DNA of 32,000 nucleotides, taken from contig OY970071.1 of the NCBI GenBank assembly GCA_963705375.1, forward strand, positions 270,001 through 302,000, given 5' to 3'. Each line of letters starts with the position of its first letter. The first letter of the stretch is position 1. Origin of the DNA: Candidatus Saccharimonadota bacterium (GTDB lineage: Archaea > Micrarchaeota > Micrarchaeia > Micrarchaeales > Micrarchaeaceae). Below, one piece after another: positions 12,663 through 32,000 of the stretch. Both the position numbers and the translations under genes were made by a program. The notes beneath the pieces are model-generated. The model was not told the origin of the DNA. It did no database searches and saw only the letters and a program-made list of their open reading frames with translations.

Positions 12663-12704
12663 ATCATCATCTACTGATTATGCTGATTTAACTACTTTGA
12701 ACAA

Positions 12705-13253: not shown

Positions 13254-13314
13254 GATTACTTATATTCGAAGTAAGGCTTTTAAGGTTGGGTTGCAGTTGT
13301 GGTGTGGTGACTTG

Positions 13315-14016: not shown

Positions 14017-14045
14017 TAGGCACAGCCTTTTGTATATAATATGTT

Positions 14046-14927: not shown

Positions 14928-15097
14928 AACAACACCTCACTTTACGGTATACCTTAATTATCTTCCCTTCTTTTATATTCTTTTGCATGTACCGCAATGT
15001 TGACTTATTTATGCCTAGTCTCTTATGGGCTTTTTCACACATAATTATTACTTTATTACATAAGTATTTAAATATTACTCTATTTATTTATTACTTT

Positions 15098-15241
15098 ATG
15101 AACACACCACTATCTAGGACCACAATACTCATAGATAAGGAACTATGGAAGAAATTCAAGATCAGATCTATAGAAAGAGGAATATCTGCTTCCGAACTGC
15201 TATCTAATTTAATAAAAAAAGAACTCAGTGAAAAAAGTTGA
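15098..15241 (+). CDS. Ribbon-helix-helix protein, a possible controller of the R-M module
   Basis: The sequence is MNTPLSRTTILIDKELWKKFKIRSIERGISASELLSNLIKKELSEKS. A TATA-like TATTTAAATATT lies about 25 nt upstream. The gene is divergent from the MTase. The ORF-track start (14987) is probably too far upstream. Confidence 0.6.
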   Translation: MNTPLSRTTILIDKELWKKFKIRSIERGISASELLSNLIKKELSEKS

Positions 15242-15379
15242 AGCAAGAAAAAGCGCTTATGCTAACCAATCAAGCCAGCAGTACTCTTATGCCTCGAAGA
15301 AGCAGACTATTTGTATAGCGTTGCCATAAACGCATTTTGTGTAAATGTTTATGTAAATAAAAGTTTATATACCTGAGTA

Positions 15380-16483: not shown

Positions 16484-16612
16484 GGAAACACAGACAGATT
16501 ATCCGAATAAGACTCTTATGTGTTTCTCTACTGAGTGGAGATTTTCAGGAAAGGCACTTTCCTAGTGGAAAATGACAGCTTCTAGTTCTGCATAGAATAT
16601 TCTGGTGTAAAT

Positions 16613-16918
16613 ATGTCTATAAAAGACAAACCAACAGAAGATACGGACGGGTTAACGTCTCACCTGAGCAGACGTAGAGAAGAGCTACTGTTGTGTCTTG
16701 ACAGCTATCTAGAGGCAATAGAAGTGAAGATAGCTTCAGGTTCACGCATAGATTTGCCAGCTGCACTAAAGAACAGAATAGAAGCAGTAGCTAGGCAAAA
16801 AGGCTGCTCGACTAACAAGGTGGCTGCTGTCATCCTTTCCAAATACCTTGACGAAGGAAAGAGGCTGCTGAGTTCGGACGAGAAGGAGGAGGAAGAAGAT
16901 GGTGCCTTCGACATATAG
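16613..16918 (+). CDS. Ribbon-helix-helix DNA-binding protein with an acidic tail
   Basis: RIDLPAALKNRIEAVARQKGCSTNKVAAVILSKYL is followed by EKEEEEDGAFDI. This is the first gene of the plus-strand core operon. Confidence 0.6.
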   Translation: MSIKDKPTEDTDGLTSHLSRRREELLLCLDSYLEAIEVKIASGSRIDLPAALKNRIEAVARQKGCSTNKVAAVILSKYLDEGKRLLSSDEKEEEEDGAFDI

Positions 16919-17453
16919 CCGAGGAGTCAAAAGGGGCCGTAAAGGCCCCCTCTCCTCAAATAAGCGCAGGTTGTCATCCAAGTCCTGGACCTCACTGACT
17001 CCGACAGAGAAGAGCGCGCGCATACGCGCACTGTCTGTGATCGGAGATATGCGTTCTGGTAAGTCCTTCAGTGCGTCGGTTAAGCATGCCGGAACCAGCC
17101 CAAAAGTCGCCAAAGCCAATCTAAAGGGCTTCATATATAAGAGGGGAGGCCGATGGCATGCGAGAGCAATAGATAACATAGAGCGCTCGATGGTCATTTA
17201 CACAAAAGGGAAGCTAAGAAGTATGATAATAGACAACAACATAGTCGCGTCCACCATCGGTCGCTATCTTAACGACGTAAAGTTTATGCTAATCGGAAAG
17301 CTCGGTTATGATGAGTTCGTTGAAAGATACAAGAACCTGTCAATCATAGATCTCGACGGCAAAGAGCACAGGCTTGAAACGAGGCTCAGCAAGCTCAAGG
17401 ATATCGAACTCTCACGGGAAGATGTACCGTTCAGTGACATCTATGACTACTGA
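16899..17453 (+). CDS. Hypothetical basic protein, possibly DNA-binding, in the casposon core operon
   Basis: It is a 184-aa ORF that overlaps its upstream gene by 20 nt and its downstream gene by 11 nt, suggesting translational coupling. I recognise no motif. Confidence 0.55.
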   Translation: MVPSTYSRGVKRGRKGPLSSNKRRLSSKSWTSLTPTEKSARIRALSVIGDMRSGKSFSASVKHAGTSPKVAKANLKGFIYKRGGRWHARAIDNIERSMVIYTKGKLRSMIIDNNIVASTIGRYLNDVKFMLIGKLGYDEFVERYKNLSIIDLDGKEHRLETRLSKLKDIELSREDVPFSDIYDY

Positions 17454-17739
17454 AAGGGTGTGCGCTATATGTGGGGAGGCTGATCCACGAGTCCTGATGG
17501 AGAAGCACCATATTTTCGGAAAGAGCAATAGCCCAGAAACGCTTATCGTCTGCCACAACTGCCACGATAAGATTACCCACGATCAGAACCTGTTGCCACC
17601 AAAAACTCGCAGCAGCAAGGCAAGCAAGGCGGATAAACAGGCATTTGAGGATGTCGCCATAGGAAGTGTGCTGGAGCTTTTCGGAAGACGTCTCAAGACA
17701 AGAAGGTATAAGCATGGACAAGATAAACGCAGCCGTTAG
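17443..17739 (+). CDS. HNH endonuclease
   Basis: CAICGEADPRVLMEKHHIFGKSNSPETLIVCHNCHDKITH is a classic HNH/His-Me finger with paired CxxC motifs. The start was chosen at the ATG at 17443. Confidence 0.8.
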   Translation: MTTERVCAICGEADPRVLMEKHHIFGKSNSPETLIVCHNCHDKITHDQNLLPPKTRSSKASKADKQAFEDVAIGSVLELFGRRLKTRRYKHGQDKRSR

Positions 17740-20353
17740 AGTGTACAACAGGCTTAAGGACGATGCCAGGAAGCACACAGCCAACCGTCCGAAAGAGCAA
17801 AACATCCAAAATTATGATAAAATCCTCTGTTTTGACACAGAAACCCGTAGTGACGAGGCGCAGGCCCTGACCTTCGGCTCCTTTGTCATCATGAACAACA
17901 ATGCCGTAGAGGGCATAGGGCTGTTCTACGCACCAGAAGAGGTCACTGCAAGCGAGCTTGCGGTCTTGAAGGCATATTGCAGGAGAGACCCCGCCCTCAA
18001 GCTTTACACGTTGCAGGAGTTTGTAGAGCAGGTGTTTTACCCAAAAGTCTACACCGAGCAGGTAATATGCACTGCTTACAATGCCCCGTTTGATATAAGC
18101 CGTCTGGCCGTAAGCTTTGGGTATGCGAAAGGCTGGACGAAAGGAGGGTTTACGTTTAAGCTGAGCAATGACAAGCGGTGGCCGGCAATAAGAGTCAAGC
18201 ACGTTAACGCTACAGAATCCTTGGTACAGTTCCAGGGTACCCGTCATGGGAAGTTCAGGGGCAACTTCGTTGACAGCCAGAAGATAGCAGCTGTGCTCAC
18301 GGACACCCAACGCATCTCTCTGAAGAGAGCGTGCGCCATCTTCAACAAGAAATACCAGAAACTCGATGTGGAAGAGCACGGAAAGATAACTGAGAAGTAC
18401 GTGGATTACAACATCCGTGACACACTAGCAACCGCAGAGCTCTTCACCAATCTGTGCAAAGAATACAACAAGTATGGGATAGAACTGCCACTGACAGAGA
18501 TCTACTCTTCCGCTTCAATGGGGAAAGCCTTCCTTGAAAGCCTCGGGATAGCTCCATTCATGAAATTGAACCCCGATTTCCCGCCTGAGCTTCTGGGCAA
18601 GCTCTCACAGGCATATTACGGCGGGAGGTGCGAGTGCAGAATAAGGAAAACTCCTACAAGAGTCTCGATACTAGACTTCACATCACAATATCCGAGTCTT
18701 TTCCTCTTGCTGGGTTTGCAGGACTTTCTTATCGCTGAACGTGTAAGTTATCTCGATGATACCGAGAAGGTAAAGAGGTTTGTGGATACCATCACACTCA
18801 ACGACCTTCAAAACCCGAACACTTGGAAACGCCTCAATGCCATTGTTGAGGTTGAACCAGACGAGGATCTCATACCTTTGAGAGCAGAATACAGCGAAGA
18901 CACGCTCACGGTCGGGCTGAATTACGTCAGTTCAAAGAAACCCCTTTACTGGGGCCTGCCAAGCGTCGTGCTGTCGAAATTAATGACCGGCAAGACTGCA
19001 AAGATACGGAAAGCGATACGTTTCATCCCCATAGGCAGACAAACGACATTGAAGAAGGCAACAATTCTAGGAATGGATATCGACCCCAGAATGGACAGCA
19101 TATTCAAGAGTCTCGTAGAAGAGAGGCACAGATGCAAGAAGGCAGGCGATGTAAAGGAGAAGTGTATCAAAATCATCGTAAACTCCTCAAGCTACGGAAT
19201 TTATCTAGAATTGAACCGAGAAGACAAAAAGTCAGACTTGGTTGTTTATAGTGGTGACGAGACCTTCCCAGAAAATAAACGCTTCGAGAAGGAGGGCAGA
19301 CACTACAACCCGATTATCGCCACACTCATAACGGATGGCGCCAAGCTATTGCTAGGAATCGGAGATTACATACTCCAGAAGCATAACGAAGTCGTTGCAT
19401 ACGCTGACACGGATTCGCTTGCAGTGCCACCACAATATGCAGATGAAGTGGTGGCTTTCTTTGACGCTCTAAACCCCTATGACAATGTCAGCCACCTGCT
19501 TAAGGTAGAGGAAAAGAACATCTGGTTCTACGGCATAAGCGCAAAACGATACGTCCTTTACGATATAGACGATAAAGGAAACTTTATCATAAAGGACGAT
19601 GAAGGGAATGAGAACTATTCCTTGCACGGTCTTGGTCACCTCTCGAATCCGTTCAACAAGACAGTAACACACTGGCAGAAGGAAATCTGGTTGGATCTGC
19701 TGAGACTGCATTACAAGAAAATCGGCGAGGCAGAGTTTCTTAACAAATATAGAAACACTTACGCCATTTCACAGTTTTCAGTTTCGACAGCTACCCTAAT
19801 GAGACGGTTCGAATCATTTAACAAAGGCAAGAGCTACAATAAGAAGATAAAACCGTTCAATTTCTTCTTGATAGGATTCGGAAATAACGAAGCCGTGAAG
19901 CCCATTGCTCCGTTCTGCAATGATGCGCAAGCAATGCCCTATGGTGATTTTATAAACTACAAGAACGGGAAGAAAATGAACGGTCAGCAGCACTTCAAAT
20001 CACTGTCGGATGAGCTATGGTCGTACAACAACCATCCCGAATCAAAGTTAGACGGTGATACGAGCACATTGCAACGCAGGCGCATCATCATAAACAGGAC
20101 AATCTACATTGGAAAGGAAGCAGACAAGATTGAAGAGAACCTTAGCGGTCTAGGCAAAGTATATTATAATGTCTACAAGAGCCCAGAGGATACGCAAATG
20201 ATTATCGCAAAAATCCTTTCGATGTCGTTAAAAGACGCCAGACTTGCAGGAATATCAAAAGGGCAATATTACAACCTACTTGCAAGTGCAAAGAAAGGCA
20301 GACTTCCTAACTTGAAGAATAAGACGCTGAAGAGACTAGGATTTTTAGACTAA
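17714..20353 (+). CDS. polB: Family B DNA polymerase
   Basis: Exo I is FDTET, Exo II is YNAPFDISRL and Exo III is YVDYNIRD. Pol motif A is LDFTSQYPSL, motif B is KIIVNSSSYG and motif C is YADTDSL. The start is MDKINAAV (17714); the ORF opens at 17666. Confidence 0.9.
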   Translation: MDKINAAVRVYNRLKDDARKHTANRPKEQNIQNYDKILCFDTETRSDEAQALTFGSFVIMNNNAVEGIGLFYAPEEVTASELAVLKAYCRRDPALKLYTLQEFVEQVFYPKVYTEQVICTAYNAPFDISRLAVSFGYAKGWTKGGFTFKLSNDKRWPAIRVKHVNATESLVQFQGTRHGKFRGNFVDSQKIAAVLTDTQRISLKRACAIFNKKYQKLDVEEHGKITEKYVDYNIRDTLATAELFTNLCKEYNKYGIELPLTEIYSSASMGKAFLESLGIAPFMKLNPDFPPELLGKLSQAYYGGRCECRIRKTPTRVSILDFTSQYPSLFLLLGLQDFLIAERVSYLDDTEKVKRFVDTITLNDLQNPNTWKRLNAIVEVEPDEDLIPLRAEYSEDTLTVGLNYVSSKKPLYWGLPSVVLSKLMTGKTAKIRKAIRFIPIGRQTTLKKATILGMDIDPRMDSIFKSLVEERHRCKKAGDVKEKCIKIIVNSSSYGIYLELNREDKKSDLVVYSGDETFPENKRFEKEGRHYNPIIATLITDGAKLLLGIGDYILQKHNEVVAYADTDSLAVPPQYADEVVAFFDALNPYDNVSHLLKVEEKNIWFYGISAKRYVLYDIDDKGNFIIKDDEGNENYSLHGLGHLSNPFNKTVTHWQKEIWLDLLRLHYKKIGEAEFLNKYRNTYAISQFSVSTATLMRRFESFNKGKSYNKKIKPFNFFLIGFGNNEAVKPIAPFCNDAQAMPYGDFINYKNGKKMNGQQHFKSLSDELWSYNNHPESKLDGDTSTLQRRRIIINRTIYIGKEADKIEENLSGLGKVYYNVYKSPEDTQMIIAKILSMSLKDARLAGISKGQYYNLLASAKKGRLPNLKNKTLKRLGFLD

Positions 20354-21552
20354 GAAAGGTGTCTCTTGGTTTTCTTATATATCTTGATCTTTCTTCCTTC
20401 TCTGATGTATTTTTGCTGATACCAGAGTGTGGATTTGTTAATTCCCAGTCTCTTTCTTTCTTCTGGAGTTATGCTAAGAATCTTGTCTCTTTGTTCTGTA
20501 TCATCATTCCTTTCTATCTCTATCAGAGGAACGTTGAATTCTAATTTGTCTCTTTTTCCTAAGAGATAATTTGCAAGAATCTCGACGTTATCATACAGGA
20601 CATTCTCATAACTGAAATTCTCGCCTTTATATGGTGCCTTGTTATTGAAATTTAGTCTTATTTTCTCTATCAGCATTCTTGCAGTCTTTTCTCTGAGTCT
20701 TATGTGAAAATTCTCTGTCACGATGAAGTCTTTTTTCTTCAATTTCTTCTCTTCCAAGAGCTGTATCACGGATAAATCGACTAGCCACCTGTAAAGTTCC
20801 TGCAAATCGCAGTCAAGAGAGTACCTACCGTCTTTTACTTCGTGTAGGAATCCTATTGCAATGTCTAGGCCTATCGAATTTGCAGTTCTTCTAACTTCGG
20901 AGTCCATCACAGAATAGCCATAATTCAGGAGGGCGTTAATCTCGTCTGATGCATTCCTGTTATGGGAATTTAGTGTGTTGTTTCTTCTTTTAAAGTTGAA
21001 TTCGGGATAAAGAGTGTTGAAGACAGCAAACAAGCATCCCCAATACATGTCTGCTATCCGACCCTCGTAAGTCATTATAGAATTTATGTCGTGTGAAGTT
21101 CCTGAAAAGAACTTCTCTTCTCTGGCAAAAGAGGATTCCAACTCGTTAACGTTGATCTCGGGATAGTATCTGGAGAGTTCTTTGAGAAGATTAAAAGACT
21201 GTCTCACTTTCTCTTTTATGATGAGTTTTGCTATCCTTTGTCTTTTTTCTTGGTCCATGTATGCTCTGTATTGCATTATCTTCAATTTGCCTGAAATTGG
21301 TTCCCTAGGAAGTGTCACACTCATAAGGTTCCCATTCCAATTTAAAAGAGACAAGCTGATTTTATGGCTCATCAGCCACCTCATGGCCTCAAAAGAAACC
21401 TGTCCGTAGTTGCCGTCTATGATGATAGAGTCATAGGATATCTGAAAAGGGAAGAATTCCTGTCTCGTTTTCTCTAATCTATTCTCGATGACAAGACGTC
21501 TTCGATCCACGTTTATACTAGTCCCAAAGCCAGCCACCAATAATGGATTCAT
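20350..21552 (-). CDS. cas1: Cas1-family integrase (casposase) with a C-terminal HTH
   Basis: Cas1 hallmarks are present: TYEGRIADMYW (catalytic Glu region), NALLNYGYSV and GFLHEVKDGRYSLDCDLQELYRWLVD (His plus acidic residues). The C-terminal ERKRLGINKSTLWYQQKYIREG is an HTH, as in casposases. Confidence 0.9.
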   Translation of the reverse strand: MNPLLVAGFGTSINVDRRRLVIENRLEKTRQEFFPFQISYDSIIIDGNYGQVSFEAMRWLMSHKISLSLLNWNGNLMSVTLPREPISGKLKIMQYRAYMDQEKRQRIAKLIIKEKVRQSFNLLKELSRYYPEINVNELESSFAREEKFFSGTSHDINSIMTYEGRIADMYWGCLFAVFNTLYPEFNFKRRNNTLNSHNRNASDEINALLNYGYSVMDSEVRRTANSIGLDIAIGFLHEVKDGRYSLDCDLQELYRWLVDLSVIQLLEEKKLKKKDFIVTENFHIRLREKTARMLIEKIRLNFNNKAPYKGENFSYENVLYDNVEILANYLLGKRDKLEFNVPLIEIERNDDTEQRDKILSITPEERKRLGINKSTLWYQQKYIREGRKIKIYKKTKRHLS

Positions 21553-21642
21553 TCATATCCCTCTTTCTTTCGAGGTTATATGATCTTCTAAAGAATATAA
21601 ACATTTCCATCGACAAATCGTCGACAAAATAGACACTTCAGC

Positions 21643-21696
21643 ATTTCAGATTTATGGAAAGTAGGAGTCCATTATGTTTTCCTTAGCTATATCCCA
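21643..21696 (-). repeat. Casposon right terminal inverted repeat (54 bp)
   Basis: It is the exact reverse complement of 6682-6735. Confidence 0.95.
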
Positions 21697-21707
21697 GCAT
21701 TTTACGC
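21697..21707 (+). repeat. Right copy of the target-site duplication (GCATTTTACGC)
   Basis: It is identical to 6671-6681. Confidence 0.8.
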
Positions 21708-21879
21708 TTTCGAGGGAAGGCAGAATGATACCTATTGAGTCAGGCAGTCTCGGTCACATGCTGGAGAGGAGTGCTTTTGGCAGCAAACCAAAGAAAAGAA
21801 AAAGATGAAGAGTGACAGGCATATTCTTTATCCATCTAATCCACCAGCTTCACTTTGTATTTGAAAGGACCTACGGACA

Positions 21880-22002
21880 CTACTCAGACAGCTCTTTCTT
21901 CATTCGGGCATACTGTTCTTCTGTTATCTCGCCTTTGGCAAGCCTCTCTTTCAAAATGTTCAGAGAGTTGTCTGCCTTTGCTTCAGCACCTGATGCTGAT
22001 TG
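21880..22002 (-). other. SHOCT-domain coding segment lacking its own start. It is in frame with, and directly downstream of, the TAG stop of 22003..22212.
   Basis: My own translation reads QSASGAEAKADNSLNILKERLAKGEITEEQYARMKKELSE*. The segment 21880..22212 is 333 nt, i.e. a single frame. Confidence 0.5.
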
Positions 22003-22212
22003 CTAAGAGCTCTTCGCTTTCCCTGTTTGTATCATGCCTGATGCGTTAGCAAAAATGTAAGCTCCTGCCACAAGAAGAGCCAATCCCACAAGTGAAAAAG
22101 CGATTTGTGGAGCGCCAGTCTCTTCTACTATGCCAGCGTAAAGAAGCAATACGCCGAACACCATCATACCTATTGATTGGTCTTTATCTCTAGCTTTTGA
22201 CATTTGCATCAC
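22003..22212 (-). CDS. Small two-TM membrane protein, possibly the N-terminal part of an interrupted membrane-SHOCT protein
   Basis: The TM segments are IGMMVFGVLLLYAGIV and IAFSLVGLALLVAGAYIF. The ORF ends at a TAG. Confidence 0.5.
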   Translation of the reverse strand: MMQMSKARDKDQSIGMMVFGVLLLYAGIVEETGAPQIAFSLVGLALLVAGAYIFANASGMIQTGKAKSS

Positions 22213-22807
22213 ATATAGCAGAAATTACACTCTTTATTTTCTCAGTATCTATATCGCTCTTGGTTATCCTCTTGATATATGCAGACTTGCTAGGGGCTTG
22301 TGGAACATAAGTCCAACTACCAACGTTTTTAGTTTGAGGTCTTTCGACACCAAGCGTATCGCACAGCTCTTTGAGTTGCTTGATGCTAAGTTTCTGCAAC
22401 AATGGATTCAATTCTAGCCTATTTCGGAAGTATGCCTTAGCGTCTATCTGTAGCGCAGCAGTACCCGTCTCAGGTGCAGCAACCTCTTTCTTTTCAGGAG
22501 CAGGTATGGGTGGTAAATCGGTAGCGGTCTTTGCGTCGGTCTTTCCGTATCTCTTTTTCATGAATACCTCAAAGCTGTCCGTTCCCTGTAATCTATTACA
22601 TGTAGGACACAGACAGACGCTATTCTTTAGTGTTGTTGGTCCTCCTCTTGAATATGCCTGCTTATGCCCTGCTTCCATCTCAGTGAAAGAGATTTCTTTT
22701 TCGCAGGCTTCACACTTACGCCCTGCTTTTTCATAAAGGATTTCTTTATCTCTGAATTTAAGCGTTCTTTTCGGCGCACGTCCAAAATCAAACAAGCCTT
22801 CTGACAT
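22190..22807 (-). CDS. HNH endonuclease with a C-terminal SAP-like DNA-binding motif
   Basis: The HNH region is CEACEKEISFTEMEAGHKQAYSRGGPTTLKNSVCLCPTCNRLQG. The SAP-like motif is LSIKQLKELCDTLGV. Confidence 0.75.
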   Translation of the reverse strand: MSEGLFDFGRAPKRTLKFRDKEILYEKAGRKCEACEKEISFTEMEAGHKQAYSRGGPTTLKNSVCLCPTCNRLQGTDSFEVFMKKRYGKTDAKTATDLPPIPAPEKKEVAAPETGTAALQIDAKAYFRNRLELNPLLQKLSIKQLKELCDTLGVERPQTKNVGSWTYVPQAPSKSAYIKRITKSDIDTEKIKSVISAICDANVKS

Positions 22808-23065
22808 GCCATCTACTGCAAAGGACTAACTGGTTAGGAATAATAATCTTGTGGTTGCACAATCGCCCGGAGTCCAGAGCGCAACATGCGCCCTAAGCCT
22901 TGACCTTCATCGCCTTTGTAATCTACTCCTTTGAATTGAACCCTAGCTCATGCAGCACAGACTCAAAGTTTGATTTCAGCTCCAGAAGCTGGTTGCGCAG
23001 GTTTGAATATCTGGAAAGCTGCATGAACACAAGAGTTAAGTATCACTTCCTATAGATGCCGTAGC

Positions 23066-23311
23066 ATGCCCAGCTTGGTGCAAGCGATACAAGAGTTATA
23101 TGATAAACCATTTGAAGTGCTTGCAGCGTGCATATTGGTTGCTGTGTTTTACTATGTGGCGAGCATATCCCTCTTCAGCCAGTTTGCTGCGCCTATCGCG
23201 AATGCAGTAGTGACTGGGCTTGTAGATGATGCTAAGGATGCAATTGCCCCTATCCTGCTGACCCTTGCTATATTGTGGGTTGCTGAAAGCAAGTACAAAC
23301 ACCCTGAATAA
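23066..23311 (+). CDS. Small hypothetical membrane protein (2 TM)
   Basis: It is an 81-aa ORF with two hydrophobic helices and no recognised motif. Confidence 0.4.
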   Translation: MPSLVQAIQELYDKPFEVLAACILVAVFYYVASISLFSQFAAPIANAVVTGLVDDAKDAIAPILLTLAILWVAESKYKHPE

Positions 23312-23354
23312 GACTGTATAGTGCCGTATATCGTTTGAGCAAACTAAGCTATGA

Positions 23355-23445
23355 ATCAAATCTCGGTGGGAGCACCAGTGGTCTTTGACGGTCTCTGAAA
23401 TTGTATGCCACTATGTGATGGCGAAGTGCTCTCTTTTTAATTGAA
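23355..23445 (+). repeat. att-like copy 1: a 19-bp copy of the tRNA-Glu 3' end plus a conserved downstream arm
   Basis: tcaaatctcggtgggagca (23355-23373) is identical to 6655-6673. It is followed by ccagtggtctttgacggtct…gtgctctctttttaattgaa, which is shared with copy 2. Confidence 0.85.
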
Positions 23446-23556
23446 CAGCCGGATATTTTCTTGCCCAAGCAGCTCGCAAGATTGCAAGCTTCCGCAAATG
23501 CGGTCGTGAAAGAAAACTAATAAAGTCCTTCATTACCCATTTATGCAGGGGTTACC

Positions 23557-24426
23557 ATGAGCAAGATAACAATGCGCACTGCGATAGAGCCGAACAAGAC
23601 GAAGCAGATGCCGGAAGAGCAACTAAACGACCTAAAAAAGATTTTAGATGGTTCAAAGCATTGTGGAAAATGGCTGCTTAACAGAGAACTCGATGATTAC
23701 AAAAGCAAATATGGACAGAATGATAAAGAAACGCAGTTGTCCTGTAAGCAAGTTGCCAGAAAGGTTACCGGACAATTCTTGAATGGTGAGTTAGATTTTG
23801 ACGCTTTAGAGAAAGCATGCGAAGAGATAGAGAACTTCAAACAGCACAGGTGGATAAAAAACAGGGACATGAAACCCTTCTTACGGAATGTTGAGGCGGT
23901 GCTTCCTGGGATTGCTGAAAAAGGATGTATTGGATGTGTATCACGCACCGCTTCTGCAGTAGGTCTGCCAAAAGCGAAAGCAAAGCAGGTAGTAATCGAG
24001 GCACTTCCAAAAATCTTAGATCTAGGCTTAGTTATTGGAATTGGTGCCGATTTGGGTGTGGGAACGCTCTCTGACGCCATAGAGACGTTTGGAACAAGAG
24101 GAAAGGATCTGAAGGCTTCAAGGGAACAGGCACTGCTTAGGACTGCGGAGCATGTGCGGAGCAACCTAATATACAGGAAGGATGTTGATGTTAGAGAGCT
24201 TGCAAAGGGCATCTGGATGGATTTTGATAAACGCATATTCTTAGCTATCCGTCCGAAACGTGACGAAACAGAAAAGTTTGTTGAAAAGCTTAAGGAAGAC
24301 GGGAATGTTAGCGAAGAAAGAGCCAGAGAAGCGGCCAAGTACCTCGAGCCACACCGCGTCATAGCCCTCATAGCATCAATAAAGGAATGGATAGACTCTC
24401 GCCTTGAAGGACCAATTTATGACTGA
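23557..24426 (+). CDS. Hypothetical protein
   Basis: It is a 289-aa ORF and the only sizeable gene between att-like copies 1 and 2. I recognise no motif. Confidence 0.55.
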   Translation: MSKITMRTAIEPNKTKQMPEEQLNDLKKILDGSKHCGKWLLNRELDDYKSKYGQNDKETQLSCKQVARKVTGQFLNGELDFDALEKACEEIENFKQHRWIKNRDMKPFLRNVEAVLPGIAEKGCIGCVSRTASAVGLPKAKAKQVVIEALPKILDLGLVIGIGADLGVGTLSDAIETFGTRGKDLKASREQALLRTAEHVRSNLIYRKDVDVRELAKGIWMDFDKRIFLAIRPKRDETEKFVEKLKEDGNVSEERAREAAKYLEPHRVIALIASIKEWIDSRLEGPIYD

Positions 24427-24544
24427 TCGAACTAAGGTCCACAAACAGGACAAGCGGTTGGAGGCCTTTTCAGGCCCGCCAAGAATGGCTAGACGGCTGC
24501 CAGGGCCCGAATAGGCAGTGCGGACGGTTCTTGGATGCTATGTC

Positions 24545-24716
24545 ATCGGTTGCATTGAATAGTCATGAGCCCCGAAGAGTTTCGTGCAATTTCATCCTGT
24601 GGCGTTTGAGAATGCAGTTTGTCGTCGAAAACTCGGTGGGAGCAACCAGTGGTCTTTGACGGTCTTTGAAAGGGTATGCCATTATTTACTGGAAAAGTGC
24701 TCTCTTTTTAATCGAA
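24545..24716 (+). repeat. att-like copy 2: upstream arm, 13-bp tRNA-Glu 3' end, then downstream arm
   Basis: ctcggtgggagca (24632-24644) equals the tRNA 3' end. After a 1-nt insertion comes ccagtggtctttgacggtct…gtgctctctttttaatcgaa. The upstream arm atcggttgcattgaa…catcctgtggcgtttgagaatgcagtttgt is shared with 27973-28050. Confidence 0.85.
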
Positions 24717-24848
24717 ATACAATAGGCTTTCCTCACGTTGAAAACGTCAAGTGCAAAGCGGCAGGACAAGGTATATAAGGATTCGCTCGAAAGTATAAAG
24801 CAAGTGAAATTATGTTTGGAGGAGCATCAGGCGGAGGCGGCGACTAAA

Positions 24849-26294
24849 TTACGCAGGCAAACCACGGATATCTAGTTTTCTGTTTTCGTAGCGTGTGATT
24901 TGGTCATATTCTATTCTCTCTGGAGGTTTAATTCCATAAGTTTCTTGTAGTATCTCCCAAGTAGACTGTCTTGATCTGTTGTCATATCGCCTATAGCATA
25001 GAGAACCCAGAAGAACACTTCTGCCTACTGTAATTGTTGTAGAGGTGCCTTCTATCTTTCTGAGTTTCTCAACTAGATTTTCAAACTCTCTTTCGTCTGT
25101 TACTGGCACTAGGAACATTACGCCATATGGTGCCGCCACGTCTCCAACAAGAGCATATTTGTTTATCAATTTTGGAACCCCTTCTACAATATCCTGTAAA
25201 AGTGTTTTTCTCCCTTTCTTAAATCCCAATGCATTTGTAACAACCATCTGCAATATTCCGACGTATTTTATAGGTAGTTTCTGCATCGCGATTGTTATTC
25301 TGTGTATTTTGCCGCTCGATCTCAGTTGATGATACGTGTACTGCGACCTTCCTTTGTCAAAACCATATTTCTTATCTATTTCTATAAAATCTTCTTTGCC
25401 GTTTGCGCTCAGTTCTCTTAGGACTGCATACTCTCTTTGTGTTATCTGATTATGGTCTGGCCTTGGCCGTTCACCTGTCCTGTGCCATATTCTATTTTTA
25501 AGTACGTCCTCGAAGAATTCGTCGCGAATAGGAGCGCAGCCATACGTCCTAAGAAATGGCGTAAATGTCCATTTCACGTCAAAGCTGGGAAAGAGATTCT
25601 GTTCCAAGTTTTGCAGAATATTTCTCCGTAGATACTCTTCTTTTTCCACCAAAAGGTAAAGCATGATGTCGTAAGCTCCGCTGGTGATGATTGCATGCTG
25701 AATGCGCGGTTCTTTACATACTTCTTTCTTAATTTTTTCAGCATTCGGAATGTCTCCTTCAAATTTTATGAACGCAAGATACTCCTCATACCCTATGCTG
25801 TCCGGCTCAACAAATGCAGTGTACTTGATATCGAACCGCTTCTCCAATCTCTGTATCCTATAGTTTATGTCTTCTTTTTTTATTCCCATTATCTTCTTCA
25901 TGTATGGTGCCTCTATCCTGCCGTTCATGCTGAGTGCCATCAGTATCTTCTTGTCGTCTTCGTCGAGACTGTCTGATGCTTTTGCTGTGATGGTTGCAGG
26001 TTTTTCTTGTATTGTCTCGGCACTTGCAACCGTTCCAGTGTATGCCTCGATTATCGCCCGTGCGTTCTCTAATTCGTCCTCTTTGGTCATTACTTTCTTT
26101 ATGAATGCCCCGTCTTCCCTTATCTTTCCTAAGTATTCTGATATCGTCTTGGACTTATTTACCCCTTTAATATATGAAGAGGTCTGCTTGTAAACATAAT
26201 ACCCTGTTCCGACCTTGTTTAAGCTGAGATACCCTTCGTGTTCGTGCCTCAGTTTGTTTAGTGTGTCAATGACTTTCTGTGGTACGCCCTCCAA
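24849..26294 (-). CDS. Transcriptional regulator with two tandem Lrp/AsnC-like (HTH + RAM) modules
   Basis: Module 1 is DEDDKKILMALSMNGRIEAPYMKKIMGIKKEDINYRIQRLEKRFDIKYTAFVEPDSIGY…SGAYDIMLYL. Module 2 is ITQREYAVLRELSANGKEDF…YHQLRSSGKIHRITI…. Confidence 0.7.
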   Translation of the reverse strand: MEGVPQKVIDTLNKLRHEHEGYLSLNKVGTGYYVYKQTSSYIKGVNKSKTISEYLGKIREDGAFIKKVMTKEDELENARAIIEAYTGTVASAETIQEKPATITAKASDSLDEDDKKILMALSMNGRIEAPYMKKIMGIKKEDINYRIQRLEKRFDIKYTAFVEPDSIGYEEYLAFIKFEGDIPNAEKIKKEVCKEPRIQHAIITSGAYDIMLYLLVEKEEYLRRNILQNLEQNLFPSFDVKWTFTPFLRTYGCAPIRDEFFEDVLKNRIWHRTGERPRPDHNQITQREYAVLRELSANGKEDFIEIDKKYGFDKGRSQYTYHQLRSSGKIHRITIAMQKLPIKYVGILQMVVTNALGFKKGRKTLLQDIVEGVPKLINKYALVGDVAAPYGVMFLVPVTDEREFENLVEKLRKIEGTSTTITVGRSVLLGSLCYRRYDNRSRQSTWEILQETYGIKPPERIEYDQITRYENRKLDIRGLPA

Positions 26295-26812
26295 CTACCC
26301 ACCGTAATAATTTGCAGTCGTTCTGATATATAAAGGTATTTTGGACTCCGACAGATGTCTATATATTTCATAAAGGGGAAACTCCCTTTTAAAATCACCA
26401 ATAAGCCCTGTTTTTGGTACAATGTTTAAGTGGTGAGCACAGAAAGCGAGGTCTTCCATATATACCACGTGCGACGTATAATATGCCCGTGGTGGGCGAA
26501 TGGAATGGGAAGATGCAGACTACAGTTCAAATTCGCGTCCTGAATCAAATCCCAAGGTAAGTATTCACCCATCTTACCACATAGGTCTCCAAACCACTTC
26601 GGCAGCGGGAGAGTCGGTCTCGCTGCCATACCTTTTAAGGAAATCTCCGGCGCTTTTAAGGACTTGATGCTTGGTGGGCGAATGAATCCGATAAGATTGT
26701 GGATGGAAAGGAAGCGGCTTGTGCAGGATGCGCAGGCGAATGAGCAAAGACCTGTAAAATGGGTCAAGGAAGGCATGAACTCGTGGAGAGTCGTGTACTC
26801 GGACTGCGCCGA

Positions 26813-27118
26813 ATGAACTGTGATGGTGGGCGTGTGAAGAACAAATCAAACAGAGCGAGAAGAGCGAAGCGCATCTCCGGGCGTTTCGGGTTCGTGTTCA
26901 TCGATCCTGAAGAGAACGCCGATGCAAATGCAGTTGCAGAGAAACTGATTGCAATAGAGAACGTGGAGGAGGTGTTCGTCACAGAAGGGGATTATGGCTA
27001 CTTGGTGAAGGTGCGCCTCGATGATGAAACAGACGGCAAGAAGTTCCTCGATTACATGAAGCGGAACGTTTCGCCGCGGCTCGGGTCTGTCACGAGCTAT
27101 TATTCGATAAAGAGGTGA
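26813..27118 (+). CDS. Stand-alone RAM (Lrp/AsnC ligand-binding-like) domain protein
   Basis: FGFVFIDPEENADANAVAEKLIAIENVEEVFVTEGDYGYLVKVRLDD matches the RAM pattern. The ORF opens at 26759 and the start is uncertain. Confidence 0.6.
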   Translation: MNCDGGRVKNKSNRARRAKRISGRFGFVFIDPEENADANAVAEKLIAIENVEEVFVTEGDYGYLVKVRLDDETDGKKFLDYMKRNVSPRLGSVTSYYSIKR

Positions 27119-27323
27119 ACCGTCAGCGAAAACCATGCTGCACTATACACGATAACGTAATAATACAACGCCCAAGCTGGGACAGGATTTATTATCTAGT
27201 CGGAGGAGTCAAACTCGCGGCAGCCTCTGACGTAAGCGAATCTGTGGCAAAACTTGATGTGAACGAAAATCAGAGCGCGAGCGAATAGGGCAGGTATTTT
27301 ATTCCTTTTATGCGCTTCATGAA

Positions 27324-27902
27324 ATGTGTTTTGCGATGCTGTCTAAAAAGATTTACCATATGGTGCTGCTCGCCAACATATTCTTCGGATTGGGTATAGG
27401 ACTTTACGGTCCGGTGTACGCAATATTCGTGAAGGACCTTGGCGGCAGCCTGATAGACATAGGCGTGGCGTATTCTATACTGCTGATACTGCAGGGGCTG
27501 CTTGTGATACCGTTCGGAGAGCTTACCGACAGGTACGGAGTAAGGCTTCTTTCGATAACTTCTACGCTCTTCTTTGCCATAGCCGCATTCCTGTATGCGC
27601 TTTGGGTGAAAGACGTGTTTTCTGTCTTCGTTGTGCAGGCGATCATAGGTATCAGCACCGCGGCAGGATCGCCGTCTTGGCCTCTTATGCTGTTCAATGC
27701 AAGTGGAAAGAGTAGAAAAGCGCTGAAGTACGGCATACTGCAATCAGGCATGTATGTCGGGGAAGGCATAGCAGGGATTGCTGGATCTGCGATTGCGGCA
27801 TACATAAGCTTTCAGGCGCTGTTTGTTAGCGTGGGCGTTCTGCTGCTTGCGTCGGCCTTCTTCATAGGCATAATAAAGCCAGATAAACTGACACAATTAT
27901 GA
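27324..27902 (+). CDS. Half-size (6-TM) MFS transporter, probably a 5'-truncated remnant
   Basis: Six hydrophobic helices are present, along with the MFS loop motif GELTDRYGVRLL. The upstream in-frame sequence has no TM helices and reaches a stop at 27255. Confidence 0.55.
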   Translation: MCFAMLSKKIYHMVLLANIFFGLGIGLYGPVYAIFVKDLGGSLIDIGVAYSILLILQGLLVIPFGELTDRYGVRLLSITSTLFFAIAAFLYALWVKDVFSVFVVQAIIGISTAAGSPSWPLMLFNASGKSRKALKYGILQSGMYVGEGIAGIAGSAIAAYISFQALFVSVGVLLLASAFFIGIIKPDKLTQL

Positions 27903-27972
27903 GTCTGCATGCAGCATTCGCACAAGAAACGCGAGCAAGCTGCGCTAGAGCATATTGCCACCTGCCCCTTTT

Positions 27973-28057
27973 ATCGGTTGCATTGAACATCAATAACCAC
28001 TGAAGAATTGCATTCAGTTGCATCCTGTGGCGTTTGAGAATGCAGTTTGTAGTCGAC
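27973..28057 (+). repeat. Orphan copy of the att upstream arm, lacking the tRNA-derived core
   Basis: atcggttgcattgaa…catcctgtggcgtttgagaatgcagtttgt matches 24545-24620. It then diverges (agtcgacaaacaaatt) where copy 2 carries the tRNA 3' end. Confidence 0.75.
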
Positions 28058-28161
28058 AAACAAATTAATGCGAATATTTGTCGTCGGAAAAGTCGCGAGT
28101 TCACATCCCTTACTTTTCAGTTTTATGGAATGCTACTGTTCGGTGTAGGTGTTGCCAATCG

Positions 28162-29361
28162 TTACACGTGCCAGATTACAGCCAGAATGCCGAGGACACC
28201 CCCTATCACTATGACTGCCGAAGCAAGCCAGAACAGATACCTGCCAGGACGGCCTAGGGCGTGGCCATTCATCACCTTGTTGTCGGAAACCAGCCTTCCC
28301 AGGAAGTACAGCGAAGGTATGATTATTATCGTGTACACGACCATTAGGCTGAGCATCAGCTGTATGTAGCTCGTTATGAAAAGCACCAGCACCAGCGCAG
28401 GAATGCTTTCGGTCAGATACACTGTAAGGAATGATGATTTTGACTTCAGGTCCAGCGCTTCCAGTACCCCCCAAGCAGAACCCAGAGAGATGACTACGAG
28501 CGCCAGGAAGCCTGCGAACACAAAGCCTATCCCCATGAACAGTGAGGCGTAAGGGCCAAACAGGGAGATTGCCTTTGAAAGGGTTTTTATGTTTATCAGG
28601 CCACCCCCGTTCGCAAGGTGCAGGCCGTCCACTACGATCAGCGCCATAAGAATCTCAGATACAACGGCGCCAAGCAAAGTCTCTATGCGCTCGTTCTTCA
28701 AGTCCTTCGGCATTTTCTTCCTGCGCGAGTCTGCCCCGGAGTGGAAGTACAGCATCCAAGGCATGATAACTGCACCTATGCTAGCCGCTAGAAGATAGTC
28801 GAAGGAAGCATTGCCGTATGGCTGTATCGGTGACAGTCCCAATGAGACAAACTTGCTTATGTCGAAGCGGAACACGAAAGTCGACGCGACGATTGCAGCC
28901 ACAAGCACGAAGCTGACAGGGATCAGCACCATCTCCGCATGCTTGTATTCTTTCCTTATCACCACGACGGTGTGAAGCAGGAACGCAAGAAGAAGGCCGA
29001 ATATCACGGGAATCCCGAGCATGCCCATGCCTATCGCTATGCCTGCATACTCCGCCACATACTCCAGGAAGTCGCTGATTCCCATAGGTATCGCGGCAAT
29101 CAAAGCGGTTTTCTTCCCGAAGTGCTTCCTTATCGCTTCGCCAAGGCCGAGGCCTGACGCGATCCCAAGCATGCCTGCAGCATCCTGGATCAGGAAGAGC
29201 GGTATCGTCAGTGCGAGCATTATGAATACAAGCCGATAGCCCCAGCTCGCGCCAGCCTGCAATGCGGTGATAATGGATGCAACGTCTATGTCTGCCATCA
29301 TCACAAGCCAGGCTGGACCGAAATTACTCAGCCAGCTAGAAAGTCTAGACCTGCCCTTCAC
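28162..29361 (-). CDS. NRAMP-family metal ion transporter, divergent in its metal-site motifs
   Basis: GPAWLVMMADIDVASIIT…GASWGYRLVF resembles NRAMP TM1 and GAVIMPWMLYFHSG resembles TM6. The protein is 399 aa and polytopic. Confidence 0.75.
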   Translation of the reverse strand: MKGRSRLSSWLSNFGPAWLVMMADIDVASIITALQAGASWGYRLVFIMLALTIPLFLIQDAAGMLGIASGLGLGEAIRKHFGKKTALIAAIPMGISDFLEYVAEYAGIAIGMGMLGIPVIFGLLLAFLLHTVVVIRKEYKHAEMVLIPVSFVLVAAIVASTFVFRFDISKFVSLGLSPIQPYGNASFDYLLAASIGAVIMPWMLYFHSGADSRRKKMPKDLKNERIETLLGAVVSEILMALIVVDGLHLANGGGLINIKTLSKAISLFGPYASLFMGIGFVFAGFLALVVISLGSAWGVLEALDLKSKSSFLTVYLTESIPALVLVLFITSYIQLMLSLMVVYTIIIIPSLYFLGRLVSDNKVMNGHALGRPGRYLFWLASAVIVIGGVLGILAVIWHV

Positions 29362-29493
29362 ATATGCGCCCCATGGCCGGGAGCGCGTCCTTCATTTTCG
29401 GACTCCATACTAACTGTTCGGAATCAATATGTATTAACCTTGTTGTTGCGGTGCCGAACTTTCCTACAATATCTCTGAGAATAGCGGACGGTC

Positions 29494-29853
29494 TTGACGC
29501 ATGGTATGGATTTAAATGTTGCCAGACATGAATTCCAAATCGGTGTTTGCTTGTTGATCAGGCGGATAAAGGAACCTGGGAAGCTCATTGCCTTTTCGGA
29601 AGGGCACCAGTTTAGATCAGGGTGTGTCGTGTTAGAACCTGGTGGAGAGGTTGGCGAGCACGCAACAGAAACAGGACAGGAACTAATCATAATACTCGAA
29701 GGGATCGCTACTGTGATCGCAGATGGAGAGCGCGGCGAAGCAACTGCGCCTTCAGAGGTACTCATCCCGATCCATACAATACATAATATAAAAAATGAGT
29801 TTCACAAGCCGCTAAAATACATCTACATAGTTTCGACAAACAAAAATCAGTAA
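29494..29853 (+). CDS. Cupin-domain protein
   Basis: GCVVLEPGGEVGEHATETGQELIIILEGIATVIADGE…VLIPIHTIHNIKN shows the cupin motifs G(x)5H.H…E and …H. Confidence 0.7.
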   Translation: MTHGMDLNVARHEFQIGVCLLIRRIKEPGKLIAFSEGHQFRSGCVVLEPGGEVGEHATETGQELIIILEGIATVIADGERGEATAPSEVLIPIHTIHNIKNEFHKPLKYIYIVSTNKNQ

Positions 29854-29945
29854 ACTCCGGATGATGAAGCAGGAAAGTCCAGAAGCGAGCCATGCCAAGC
29901 ACAATAAACGCAATAAAGGAAAAATAATTTCATATGATGCTGCGT

Positions 29946-30028
29946 CATATTATGCCGAGTTGTTCGCACATTAAACCTAAAGCGCAGATAACGGTGGGAG
30001 CACCAGTGGTCTTTGACAGTCTTTGAAG
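29946..30028 (+). repeat. att-like copy 3: an 11-bp tRNA-Glu 3' end with arms
   Basis: cggtgggagca (29992-30002) is followed by ccagtggtctttgacagtctttgaag. The upstream arm catattatgccgagttgttcgcacattaaacctaaagcgcagataa is shared with 31529-31575. Confidence 0.8.
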
Positions 30029-30161
30029 TTGTTAGTGCTCGTGCCTTGAAGAGGTCAGTTATTTCATGTTTATTGGCATAACCAGCGGACGATGCTATCA
30101 TTCAAACCTTCTGCGCGGGGAAAGCATTATTAAATCGAAATCGAAGGAATAGACATGTCAA

Positions 30162-30992
30162 ATGCCAGTACCGACTGATAGCATGGAATTGGTCTTCAAC
30201 ACGAACAAGCACCTACGAAAGTTGGTGGCAGTCTGGGATCTTTTTGGGCCTCCTGACGCTCCCGCCAACCGGCTTGACCCGCGTTTCTTCGGAAAAGATT
30301 TCAACACCTCTGCTGCCATCTCGGCAGAGATGCGAAAGTACGAAAAGGGCGACCTGTGGGTTGCGTTTCTGGATAAGAACATGCATGAAAGCGAAAATGC
30401 AGCAAGGTTCCCTGACTTAAGGGACATGCTCACCACCTTAAACATTCCCATGGAGGATGACGATAGCAAATTCTTCAAAGAAGTAAAGGCATCCTTGGTG
30501 GCCGATTTCAAGAAACATGAGGAAGATATCGAAGTGTGGCTGGAGCGCATATTCGGGTTCAAACTACCCGTAGAAGTTAATCTGGTGGTTGACCACTATT
30601 ATGCCAAGAATACCGGAGGTTCTAGCTTATCGTCAGACCCGGCTATTGTATCATTACGAATGAGAGAGTATGCCAATGAGTATGTGGGAGTGCTCTTGCA
30701 TGAACTTTTGCATTCACTGGTAAGGAAAGCAAAGATATTTGCCACTTCAAGCATGGGAAATGGCAGTTTCGAGGAGGCACTTCTGGACTATTTCGCCCCG
30801 GCAGGATTGCTTGACTGGAAAGCAGGCCTGATTGCGTCTTTAGACGTGATAGAACATCAGAGGCGCTGCGAACGACTTAGGCCTTATGCTTCAGGAAATT
30901 CAAGAATGCTATTGCCGTTTATCCAAGAGTACTCTACTATATGCGGCGAGAAGACCATCTGGCAGTTCCTGAAAGAGAAGAGCATCATATGA
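30162..30992 (+). CDS. Hypothetical protein with an HExxH motif, a putative zinc metallopeptidase
   Basis: It is a 276-aa ORF containing VGVLLHELLHSLV. I recognise no other motif. Confidence 0.5.
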   Translation: MPVPTDSMELVFNTNKHLRKLVAVWDLFGPPDAPANRLDPRFFGKDFNTSAAISAEMRKYEKGDLWVAFLDKNMHESENAARFPDLRDMLTTLNIPMEDDDSKFFKEVKASLVADFKKHEEDIEVWLERIFGFKLPVEVNLVVDHYYAKNTGGSSLSSDPAIVSLRMREYANEYVGVLLHELLHSLVRKAKIFATSSMGNGSFEEALLDYFAPAGLLDWKAGLIASLDVIEHQRRCERLRPYASGNSRMLLPFIQEYSTICGEKTIWQFLKEKSII

Positions 30993-31170
30993 CGCTTCTG
31001 CCGTGCGACGCTGCATTAATTTGGGATCCTAAAACTTCCACTAAAGACAAAAATACAGAGCGCTTTTTAATCTTTCATACTATCAAAAGCGTGCTGTGAA
31101 TGCGTAACTGACCAGACGCATCAAGTACCACAGCAAGCACCATTTAGGCGACATTTATAGAGGGACCGTT

Positions 31171-31479
31171 ATGGATATACGTAGCAGCAGGCTTCGCTTA
31201 AGCACCGAACACAAAGAGTTCATTAAGGACCTGACGACCTTGATGGTCGGTTATACCCCCGTTTCAGGCGCAGTTGGCATCATAACATTCGGCAATAAAT
31301 GGTTTGGGCAAAAGAGATCACTCCACCGTACGGTTGAATATATGGTGGAATATGTAAAAGAGTGCAACAGAAAGAGCTACATAAAAAAACGTAGTAGAAG
31401 GATAGGCGAGGCGCATAGGAAGCTGGGCAATAAGTATCACCCGAATGAGAATATGGCCATTAAGAATATTGTAAAATGA
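31171..31479 (+). CDS. Hypothetical basic protein
   Basis: It is a 102-aa ORF with no recognised motif. Confidence 0.4.
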   Translation: MDIRSSRLRLSTEHKEFIKDLTTLMVGYTPVSGAVGIITFGNKWFGQKRSLHRTVEYMVEYVKECNRKSYIKKRSRRIGEAHRKLGNKYHPNENMAIKNIVK

Positions 31480-31528
31480 ATAGCACATCTCACACACGCC
31501 AACTCAGAAGAATTGCATGCTGTTGCAC

Positions 31529-31606
31529 CATATTGTGCCGAATTATTCGCACCCGAAACTTAAAGCGCGGATAACGTGGAGGCGCCTTGTTTAAAGTTCA
31601 AATCTC
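31529..31606 (+). repeat. Degenerate att-like copy 4
   Basis: catattgtgccgaattattcgcacccgaaacttaaagcgcggataacgtggaggcgcc aligns at about 80% identity with copy 3. In addition, agttcaaatctc (31595-31606) is identical to the T-arm of tRNA-Glu (6652-6663). Confidence 0.6.
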
Positions 31607-31678
31607 TACAAAAATCAAAGGCACCTAAGCATAGTGTGCTCGGATTTCTAGGATACTGCCATGAATGAAAGAGCAGTG

Positions 31679-31990
31679 TTATTTTATGCCTAGAGCAGCA
31701 AGAATGCTTGTGGTTACTCTTTTTATCCAGCTTGTTTTATTGGGCTGTTTGACAGAGGTGTCAATGCTGTTGTCTCTTGCTTGAGTTCCGAAAGTTAGAA
31801 TATCGGCAGATGGGAGCGTTCCTTGAATTTCTTGACTCATATTCGGACTATCGACAGAGAGGGATACTCCTTGCATTTCTTGGTCCATATTTGGACTATC
31901 GACAGATGGAAGAGTTCCTTGCATTACTTGGCCCATATTGTGTTGATTTAGCCACAGATCCCCTGTTCCGCTTAGTCTTAAGGACATCAT
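31679..31990 (-). CDS. Hypothetical repeat protein
   Basis: It is a 103-aa ORF containing three 16-aa repeats (SPNMDQEMQGVSLSVD-like). Confidence 0.4.
   Translation of the reverse strand: MMSLRLSGTGDLWLNQHNMGQVMQGTLPSVDSPNMDQEMQGVSLSVDSPNMSQEIQGTLPSADILTFGTQARDNSIDTSVKQPNKTSWIKRVTTSILAALGIK
31802..31945. repeat. Three tandem 48-bp repeats
   Basis: The units are atcggcagatgggagcgttccttgaatttcttgactcatattcggact, atcgacagagagggatactccttgcatttcttggtccatatttggact and atcgacagatggaagagttccttgcattacttggcccatattgtgttg. Confidence 0.8.
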
Positions 31991-32000
31991 ATTGAAACTA

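Follow-up and report, generated by a model that had tools for sequence, protein, structure and literature searches.

Why does the 3' end of one tRNA gene recur, always on the strand of that gene, in the DNA downstream of it? The question is raised by a stretch of 32,000 nucleotides (nt) from a contig of the Micrarchaeota (OY970071.1, positions 270,001 to 302,000), referred to as the window in the following. A tRNA-Glu(UUC) gene lies at 6599-6673 on the plus strand (predicted by ARAGORN; 58.8 bits with the Rfam tRNA model), and its last 11-19 nt correspond to the repeated core (attB/attL). The best explanation for the repeats is that, in this Micrarchaeota lineage, two or more related families of integrative elements use the 3' end of tRNA-Glu as their attachment site. 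We consider it likely that such elements accumulated in tandem at this site and then lost their recombination genes, so that islands similar to cis-mobilizable elements (CIMEs) were left, and that a casposon arrived last.

Four copies of the core (c1 to c4) and one further piece of the tRNA were found downstream of the gene, all of them on the plus strand. The longest, c1 (23356-23374; repeat family D7), is identical to the tRNA 3' end at 19 of 19 positions. An earlier note on this DNA had given its length correctly and its position, 23355-23373, one base off; the copies of 13 bp and 11 bp, the degenerate copy and the 12-bp match to the T-arm were recovered exactly where that note had placed them. 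Copy c2 (24632-24644) matches at 13 of 13 positions, and at 16 of 19 in register, and is followed by an extra A at 24645 before the downstream flank. Copy c3 (29992-30002) matches at 11 of 11 positions and at 15 of 19 in register. The degenerate copy c4, cgtggaggcgcc, is located at 31575-31586, and shortly behind it, at 31595-31606, blastn-short found the T-arm sequence agttcaaatctc with 12 of 12 matches. This last piece is probably a truncated additional core copy. The repeated core sequence ends with …CTCGGTGGGAGCA. Its terminal GGTGGGAGCA occurs exactly four times in the window, each time on the plus strand (tRNA, c1, c2 and c3), and five times when one mismatch is allowed, the fifth match (3848-3857) having one mismatch and lying on the minus strand. 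Shuffled windows contained on average 1.41 matches with up to one mismatch, and none of 100 shuffles attained five.

The cores are embedded in longer conserved sequences, here called arms. The cores c1 to c4, the T-arm piece and the arms are all repeated in direct orientation, on the strand of the tRNA and downstream of tRNA-Glu, and the junctions of arm, core and arm are intact at c1 to c3. Downstream of c1, c2 and c3 the sequence ACCAGTGGTCTTTGAC(G/A)GTCT(C/T)TGAA is present (repeat family D1). The arm of c1 begins with CCAGTGGTCTTTGAC and occupies 23375-23445, that of c2 24645-24716, and that of c3 is 25 nt long (30003-30027). The first two are 86% identical over 72 nt, in line with the shared stretch of about 70 bp that the earlier note had described; it had also seen the common sequence behind the third copy.

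Upstream of the cores two types of arms can be distinguished. Type I (family D5) precedes c2 at 24545-24631 (nhmmer E = 2e-29) and has homologues in two other genomes, L010 and L017. It recurs at 27973-28059 as an orphan arm (arm28k) to which no acceptor-end core is attached; in its place cGAGTTCAcATC, a weak T-arm-like piece with 11 of 12 matches, follows at 28096-28107. The two type I arms are 82% identical in the family D5 alignment. Type II precedes c3 at 29923-29991 (E = 1e-23) and is 87-91% identical to sequences in L017. The arm of c4, which together with its core spans 31490-31586, is a hybrid of the two types, with E = 2e-23 for the type II profile and E = 5e-4 for type I; the arms of c3 and c4 are 81% identical to each other. 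The earlier note had recognized both of these pairs, relating the arm of the second copy to 27973-28050 and that of the third to 31529-31575, and had missed the T-arm-like piece behind arm28k and the hybrid nature of the c4 arm. Also new with respect to that note is a scan with nhmmer profiles, which returned no additional arm in the 33.8 kb of source sequence that can be read, i. e. the window plus 1,773 nt beyond 32 kb from a Logan contig (L001).

The two types also account for the different core lengths. The series of 19, 13 and 11 nt and finally a degenerate copy might suggest a gradient of decay. This does not hold, because type I and type II arms have core lengths of their own (13 and 11 nt, respectively), which both are kept in L017; with its 11 nt, c3 has the core length native to type II.

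A 28-nt block within the type I arm, CATCCTGTGGCGTTTGAGAATGCAGTTT, is identical in both window copies and in L017, including the wobble positions of every reading frame; in the L010 arm two bases differ. The arms fold no better than shuffled sequences (z from -1.6 to +0.8). Since the block is invariant at wobble positions and the arms do not fold above the level of shuffles, the most economical reading is that the arms are bound by proteins in the form of duplex DNA, as are for instance the arm sites of attP. Two other functions were considered. One minus-strand frame contains no stop in any of the four type I copies, and the arm could therefore be the end of a coding region; this was rejected as unsupported, the wobble positions being invariant in three of the copies. 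A structured RNA or DNA was rejected in view of the shuffle-level folding and of the absence of any Rfam match for the arms.

That the tRNA-Glu locus is an integration hotspot, as the earlier note had proposed, becomes apparent from related genomes. Upstream of the tRNA the window carries a host block with the genes for dCTP deaminase (dcd, 5413-5976, minus strand) and thymidylate kinase (tmk, 6003-6590, plus strand). Homologues of the latter led to five related loci (L003, L005, L006, L010 and L015), with 63-75% amino acid identity in tmk; a tmk-based scan of genome contigs found nothing. The arrangement dcd-tmk-tRNA-Glu is kept in all five relatives. In each of them the similarity to the window breaks off with the final base of the tRNA (6673), and the DNA beyond is different every time. 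The relatives share neither the segments nor their gene order, so that the segments do not behave as conserved core genome, and all known copies of the arms lie at tRNA-Glu. The conditions that the earlier note had named as refuting its interpretation were not encountered in the sequence covered.

The genes that follow tRNA-Glu in the relatives are to a good part of the defence type. L003 carries an Eco57I-type methylase and then an HNH-AAA protein (12437-15205), L006 an Eco57I-like enzyme (10778-12772) and L015 a GmrSD enzyme (3332-5872); L010 has an AHSA1 gene. Because islands of three relatives (L003, L006, L015) contain such genes, the tRNA-Glu hotspot doubles as a defence island. L006, L010, L015 and L017 have a short similarity in common, …GA.TTTTGG..T, which stands behind the tRNA or the last core. 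It might be the ancestral flank or alternatively, being T-rich, a terminator.

Arms and cores themselves were met in two other genomes. In L010 a type I upstream arm with core, 82-87% identical to that of c2, is located 0.5 kb past tRNA-Glu, and the next core follows 0.7 kb further on. L017, a contig of an uncultured Micrarchaeota metagenome-assembled genome, is the sole genome in the GTDB set that matches the 20-nt arm pattern. On its reverse strand a type II arm with an 11-nt core comes first; small open reading frames (ORFs) fill the next 0.8 kb, and behind them lies a type I arm whose 13-nt core is perfect. The host genes beyond show synteny with those at the right border of the island in L003. 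The occurrence of the arms in L017 makes Micrarchaeota the most likely lineage of the source as well. The same module flanks different DNA: the cargo adjoining the arms is unrelated in every case (window, L010 and L017). Between the last core of L017 and its first conserved host gene (reverse strand, about 4090-4230) the motif TTATCCGAATA occurs three times in about 130 nt; it may be a regulatory site.

In the window the repeats delimit four segments (A to D), which are foreign and variable. The GC content of the host flank is 0.515 vs 0.44-0.47 in the segments, and megablast of 21699-32000 against known plasmid and phage collections gave no match. Low GC content, ORFan genes, the lack of a recombinase and the variability in relatives all agree with the claim of the earlier note that the repeats bound acquired, integrase-less segments.

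Segment A (about 1.65 kb, 21709-23355; GC content 0.443) encodes an HNH endonuclease (22190-22807, minus strand; Pfam HNH), an 81-aa membrane ORF and an interrupted membrane ORF with a SHOCT domain (Pfam; about 21880-22212, minus strand). The latter is likely a pseudogene, because an in-frame stop interrupts it. Segment B (1.26 kb, 23375-24631), the left end of which is the downstream arm of c1, contains a single ORFan of 289 aa (23557-24426, plus strand), for which a word-index search returned nothing outside its own cluster. Two Logan contigs from other samples (L008 and L009) carry a copy of segment B that is 91% identical, the downstream arm included, and has a degenerate core and this arm in front of it. 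In L008 the homology stops at window position 24493 and the contig runs on into other genes. By this comparison, segment B is a truncated form, or deletion derivative, of a longer unit which is seen in L008 and L009.

Segment C (5.3 kb, 24645-29991), annotated with Pfam, NCBIfam and the gene table of L001, is probably composite. Its genes are those for a 481-aa Lrp/AsnC-like protein (minus strand), an AsnC fragment, the N-terminal half of an MFS transporter (27324-27902), an Nramp transporter (28162-29361, minus strand) and a cupin (29494-29853). The MFS gene corresponds to positions 2-168 of a profile with 347 positions, and its end lies 70 nt ahead of arm28k. Segment D (1.57 kb, 30003-31574) consists of two ORFans of 276 aa and 102 aa without any match in Pfam, PHROGs, NCBIfam, PADLOC or the PDB. 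Sequence searches of the PDB with the ORFans were empty, and the AlphaFold models of the 289-aa and 276-aa proteins had a predicted local distance difference test score (pLDDT) of 41. The 276-aa ORFan (30162-30992) has a HELLH motif of the HExxH type. A 197-aa gene in the L010 array (1960-2553) shows a weak match to SprT-like zinc metalloproteases; no homology between it and the 276-aa ORFan was detected. Beyond segment D, a minus-strand ORF that extends from 31679 to about 32182, when completed with L001, contains three tandem repeats of 48 nt (31798-31941) which encode a peptide like SVDSPNM.QE.QG.

Signs of decay are visible in three segments, namely the half MFS gene abutting an arm, the in-frame stop of the SHOCT ORF, and segment B being shorter than in L008.

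A recombinase was looked for from the casposon to the window end: all ORFs of 80 aa or more were compared with Pfam, and the main ones also with NCBIfam and PHROGs. The search was continued with a six-frame Pfam scan of unassigned DNA and with tblastn, for which an integrase fragment of L003 and three full-length homologues served as queries. Neither the profile searches nor the six-frame scan nor tblastn with these lineage integrases found a recombinase in the window. The earlier note, which had reported neither a tyrosine nor a serine recombinase, was right in this respect. It had also proposed to look beyond 32 kb for an integrase and a final attR; the 1,773 nt of L001 contain neither an integrase nor an additional core. 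An integrase-like ORF running across any core, as in the partitioned integrase genes of SSV-type integration, was not found in the window either.

The clue to the integrase comes from a relative. In L003 the C-terminal part (about 40%) of a tyrosine recombinase of about 400 aa begins some 60-100 nt past tRNA-Glu, ahead of the methylase mentioned above. No N-terminal partner was found within 10 kb of this fragment. A word-index search with the fragment returned nothing but itself; an exhaustive search yielded 3,034 matches and defined a family of about 400 aa with a C-terminal zinc ribbon. A full-length integrase of this family (409 aa) is encoded on L018, an 8.4-kb metagenomic contig (1-8369) with about 200 nt of terminal redundancy, which probably represents a circular element of about 8.2 kb. 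The tRNA-Glu core was absent from L018 and from L019, the contexts of full-length integrase relatives.

From these data the following course of events can be proposed. A site borne by the element, consisting of an upstream arm, a core of 11-19 bp identical to the tRNA end and a downstream arm, would recombine with the tRNA. Integration would restore the tRNA and deposit a copy of the core behind the upstream arm of the element, at its distal end. If the site was used again and again, be it at the tRNA or in a core copy already present, elements would be stacked head to tail. Deletions would afterwards strip the integrase and backbone genes, and the residue would be cargo between intact-looking att junctions, i. 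e. CIME-like islands without integrase. As a final step the casposon would enter beside the tRNA, with the tRNA end as its target. In this scheme the integrations would have been performed by a tyrosine recombinase, the arms would be the binding sites of this recombinase, and the segments would be deletion remnants.

Several points weigh against this scheme. No integrase was found together with these att sites, be it in the window, in the 1.8 kb beyond it or in the roughly ten segments of the three genomes. The integrase remnant of L003 adjoins a different downstream arm, and the closest full-length homologue, on the probably circular 8.2-kb L018, comes without a tRNA-Glu core. Because the segments contain no genes for replication, structural proteins or transfer, their origin as elements that decayed is a step that we infer. 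Furthermore, the distribution of the arms was read in 33.8 kb of a source genome of 1.2 Mb, so that a spread of the arms over the whole genome is conceivable, and the presence and absence of segments was seen between distant relatives (63-75% identity in tmk) rather than between close strains.

The small size of the segments allows a different interpretation. Small units of one or two genes, equipped with nothing else than arm and core, could be captured and reshuffled at tRNA-Glu by a recombinase which is encoded elsewhere. The segments would then never have been autonomous elements, and the system would be functionally similar to an integron with a tRNA gene as its anchor. Indeed, a module of about 100 nt, consisting of arm and core, stands beside wholly unrelated cargo in three genomes; the segments are tiny, with 1.3-1.7 kb in the window and as little as 0.6-0.8 kb in L010 and L017; neither integrase nor backbone genes were seen in any of them; and the arms are conserved at least as well as the adjacent host genes. 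Yet we regard this interpretation as rather unlikely. The orientation of genes within the segments is mixed, the arms form no hairpin of the attC type (fold z-scores near zero), and an integrase beside the platform was not found. Truncated genes such as the MFS gene abut the arms. Decay also fits better than tidy cassettes, because segment B derives from the longer L008 unit by deletion. In its strongest form, the interpretation would be that tRNA-Glu of Micrarchaeota anchors a gene-capture platform at which a trans-encoded recombinase inserts, stacks and exchanges units of one to few genes between genomes, each unit being equipped with one of the two arm types and a core of 11-13 bp; this we consider unlikely. 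If it were true, organisms with genomes of 1 Mb would possess a system comparable to integrons that relies on a tRNA attachment site.

The repeats could also have arisen without any integration, by local segmental duplication or as a dispersed regulatory or RNA repeat of the host that happens to resemble the tRNA end. The copies are clustered, as expected from duplication, and the downstream arm has so far been found only in this strain and in L008 and L009. Its pattern gave no match in viral contigs and four chance matches in metagenome contigs; the patterns of the upstream arm and of the tRNA end had no match in viral contigs. However, no duplicated sequence was found between the repeat copies, and a host RNA repeat is at odds with the missing Rfam match and the insignificant folding. 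The nine known copies are without exception at the tRNA-Glu locus and on the tRNA strand. Another argument comes from the degree of identity. Across genomes the arms are 75-93% identical, and the paralogues in the window 80-81%, with adjacent host genes at 76-83% on the nucleotide level. In the best case, arm28k is 93% identical to the L017 arm vs 80% to the c2 arm of its own genome. As identity across genomes equals or exceeds that between window paralogues, the comparison points to arms which were acquired repeatedly from a shared mobile pool and not duplicated locally. Duplication or a host repeat is therefore an improbable origin.

The accretion of integrative elements was followed by another type of insertion. 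A casposon of about 15 kb (6680-21698) begins six bases past tRNA-Glu. It is bounded by perfect terminal inverted repeats (TIRs) of 56 nt (6680-6735 and 21643-21698) and encodes Cas1 (20350-21552, minus strand; Pfam 1.2e-59, TIGR00287) and a divergent candidate for a family B DNA polymerase (PolB) of 895 aa (17666-20353, plus strand). The latter gave no sequence match in Pfam, NCBIfam or the PDB, and its assignment to PolB rests on the motifs DFTSQYP (at 337) and YADTDS (at 579). The target site duplication (TSD) is ATTTTAC and can be read up to AGCATTTTACGCT, i. e. it is 7-13 bp long (6670-6682 and 21696-21708), because the outermost TIR bases are palindromic. This duplication repeats the bases with which segment A starts. 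Since it includes the first bases past the right TIR, the casposon entered a pre-existing junction between the tRNA and segment A; the left end of this segment thus adjoined the tRNA before. The casposon is the last insertion at the locus, and the earlier note, which had called it the most recent one, is upheld by the perfect TIRs and by the duplication of the segment A start. It uses the tRNA-Glu end as its target, and TSD and repeated core overlap there by 1-4 nt. The target of the casposase is expected to be the tRNA-Glu end plus TTTTACGCT, and c1 to c3 are not expected to be integration targets.

HNH genes are common in family 2 casposons, and the HNH gene of segment A lies just outside the right TIR. 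The earlier note had considered as an alternative that the repeats record older insertions by Cas1 (the casposase), comparable to the leader-proximal insertion of spacers, and they would then be the TSDs of casposon-type insertions; even though the casposon does target this tRNA end and casposons are known to stand in tandem at one site (PMC4779613), this is highly improbable, because the segment ends carry no inverted repeats (left ends against reverse-complemented right ends score 13-18, shuffles 13.4 on average and 25 at most), no remnant of a casposon TIR is found downstream, the repeated core (…GGTGGGAGCA) differs from the casposon TSD (ATTTTAC…), and the upstream and downstream arms, which are asymmetric, are conserved in direct orientation, as would be expected of attP arms.

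Two further observations concern the casposon. About 65-85 nt just 3' of the ORF at 15380-16483 (minus strand), in the interval 15295-15380, are 85% identical to L003 14288-14373 within the tRNA-Glu island of that genome; this is the only similarity between the islands of the window and L003. An ORF of 666 aa with a weak PKD-like match contains tandem repeats of 147 nt that are 93% identical (8478-8745 and 8934-8985), i. e. the casposon carries a repetitive protein of the surface type. A limited full-text search of the literature yielded no account of a casposon situated at tRNA-Glu or hosted by Micrarchaeota.

The locus illustrates how accessory and defence genes are acquired by a DPANN archaeon whose genome measures about 1.2 Mb, and how one tRNA-linked hotspot serves both site-specific integrative elements and a casposon. 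For further work the arm and core sequences provide a practical probe for the elements which supply this hotspot and for their integrase. That elements accumulate in tandem and then lose the integrase has been well documented for bacteria and is known in archaea, so that the value of the present example is descriptive, not conceptual.

The closest parallel is found in Dehalococcoides, where islands stand in tandem at ssrA, each bounded by a repeat of about 20 bp of the 3' end of the gene with additional conservation in the flanks (McMurdie et al. 2011, PMC3146451). About half of these islands have no integration module and were proposed to be mobilizable in cis, and the region is hypervariable between strains (PMC3146451). 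Both systems share the multiple tandem islands behind one small RNA gene and a small streamlined genome (PMC3146451). They differ in that the target in Dehalococcoides is the tmRNA and not tRNA-Glu, and in that many islands there encode the serine recombinase DsiB, whereas no integrase was found here and the clue from the lineage is the remnant of a tyrosine recombinase. In addition, the host of the present islands is an archaeon, and they are far smaller (0.6-5 kb).

The loss of integration and transfer genes with retention of attL and attR is the hallmark of CIMEs, as described for the accretion of integrative conjugative and integrative mobilizable elements (ICEs and IMEs) in streptococci (Pavlovic 2004; PMC5704250). 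Tandem arrays arise there when a newcomer integrates into a resident element's att site (PMC5704250). CIMEs were, however, defined in Firmicutes with conjugative partners, and their mobilization in trans was shown experimentally, whereas the islands described here are known from sequence alone. In archaea, arrays of tyrosine-recombinase elements which re-use one site have been noted (PMC6563490).

A casposon and an integrative element sharing one site are known from the tRNA-Leu gene of Methanosarcina mazei, where the casposon came later than a mobile genetic element with a tyrosine integrase (Krupovic et al. 2016, PMC4779613, section 10). As in M. mazei, the target of the casposon and the att site of the element overlap at the tRNA 3' end, and the casposon is situated between tRNA and element. 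Yet in M. mazei there is a single intact element with integrase and replication genes, as opposed to four or five integrase-less remnants here. The cassette arrays of integrons also resemble the locus, with their short unrelated gene units, the recurring recombination site between them and the fixed anchor. Unlike integrons, it has no adjacent IntI and no hairpin-forming attC, its gene orientation is mixed, and its repeats are copies of a tRNA end. The locus combines known features and is an example of a known process rather than of a new one. Particular to it are the absence of an integrase from every segment seen, the very small size of the segments, the DPANN host, the tRNA-Glu target and the presence of two arm types at one site.

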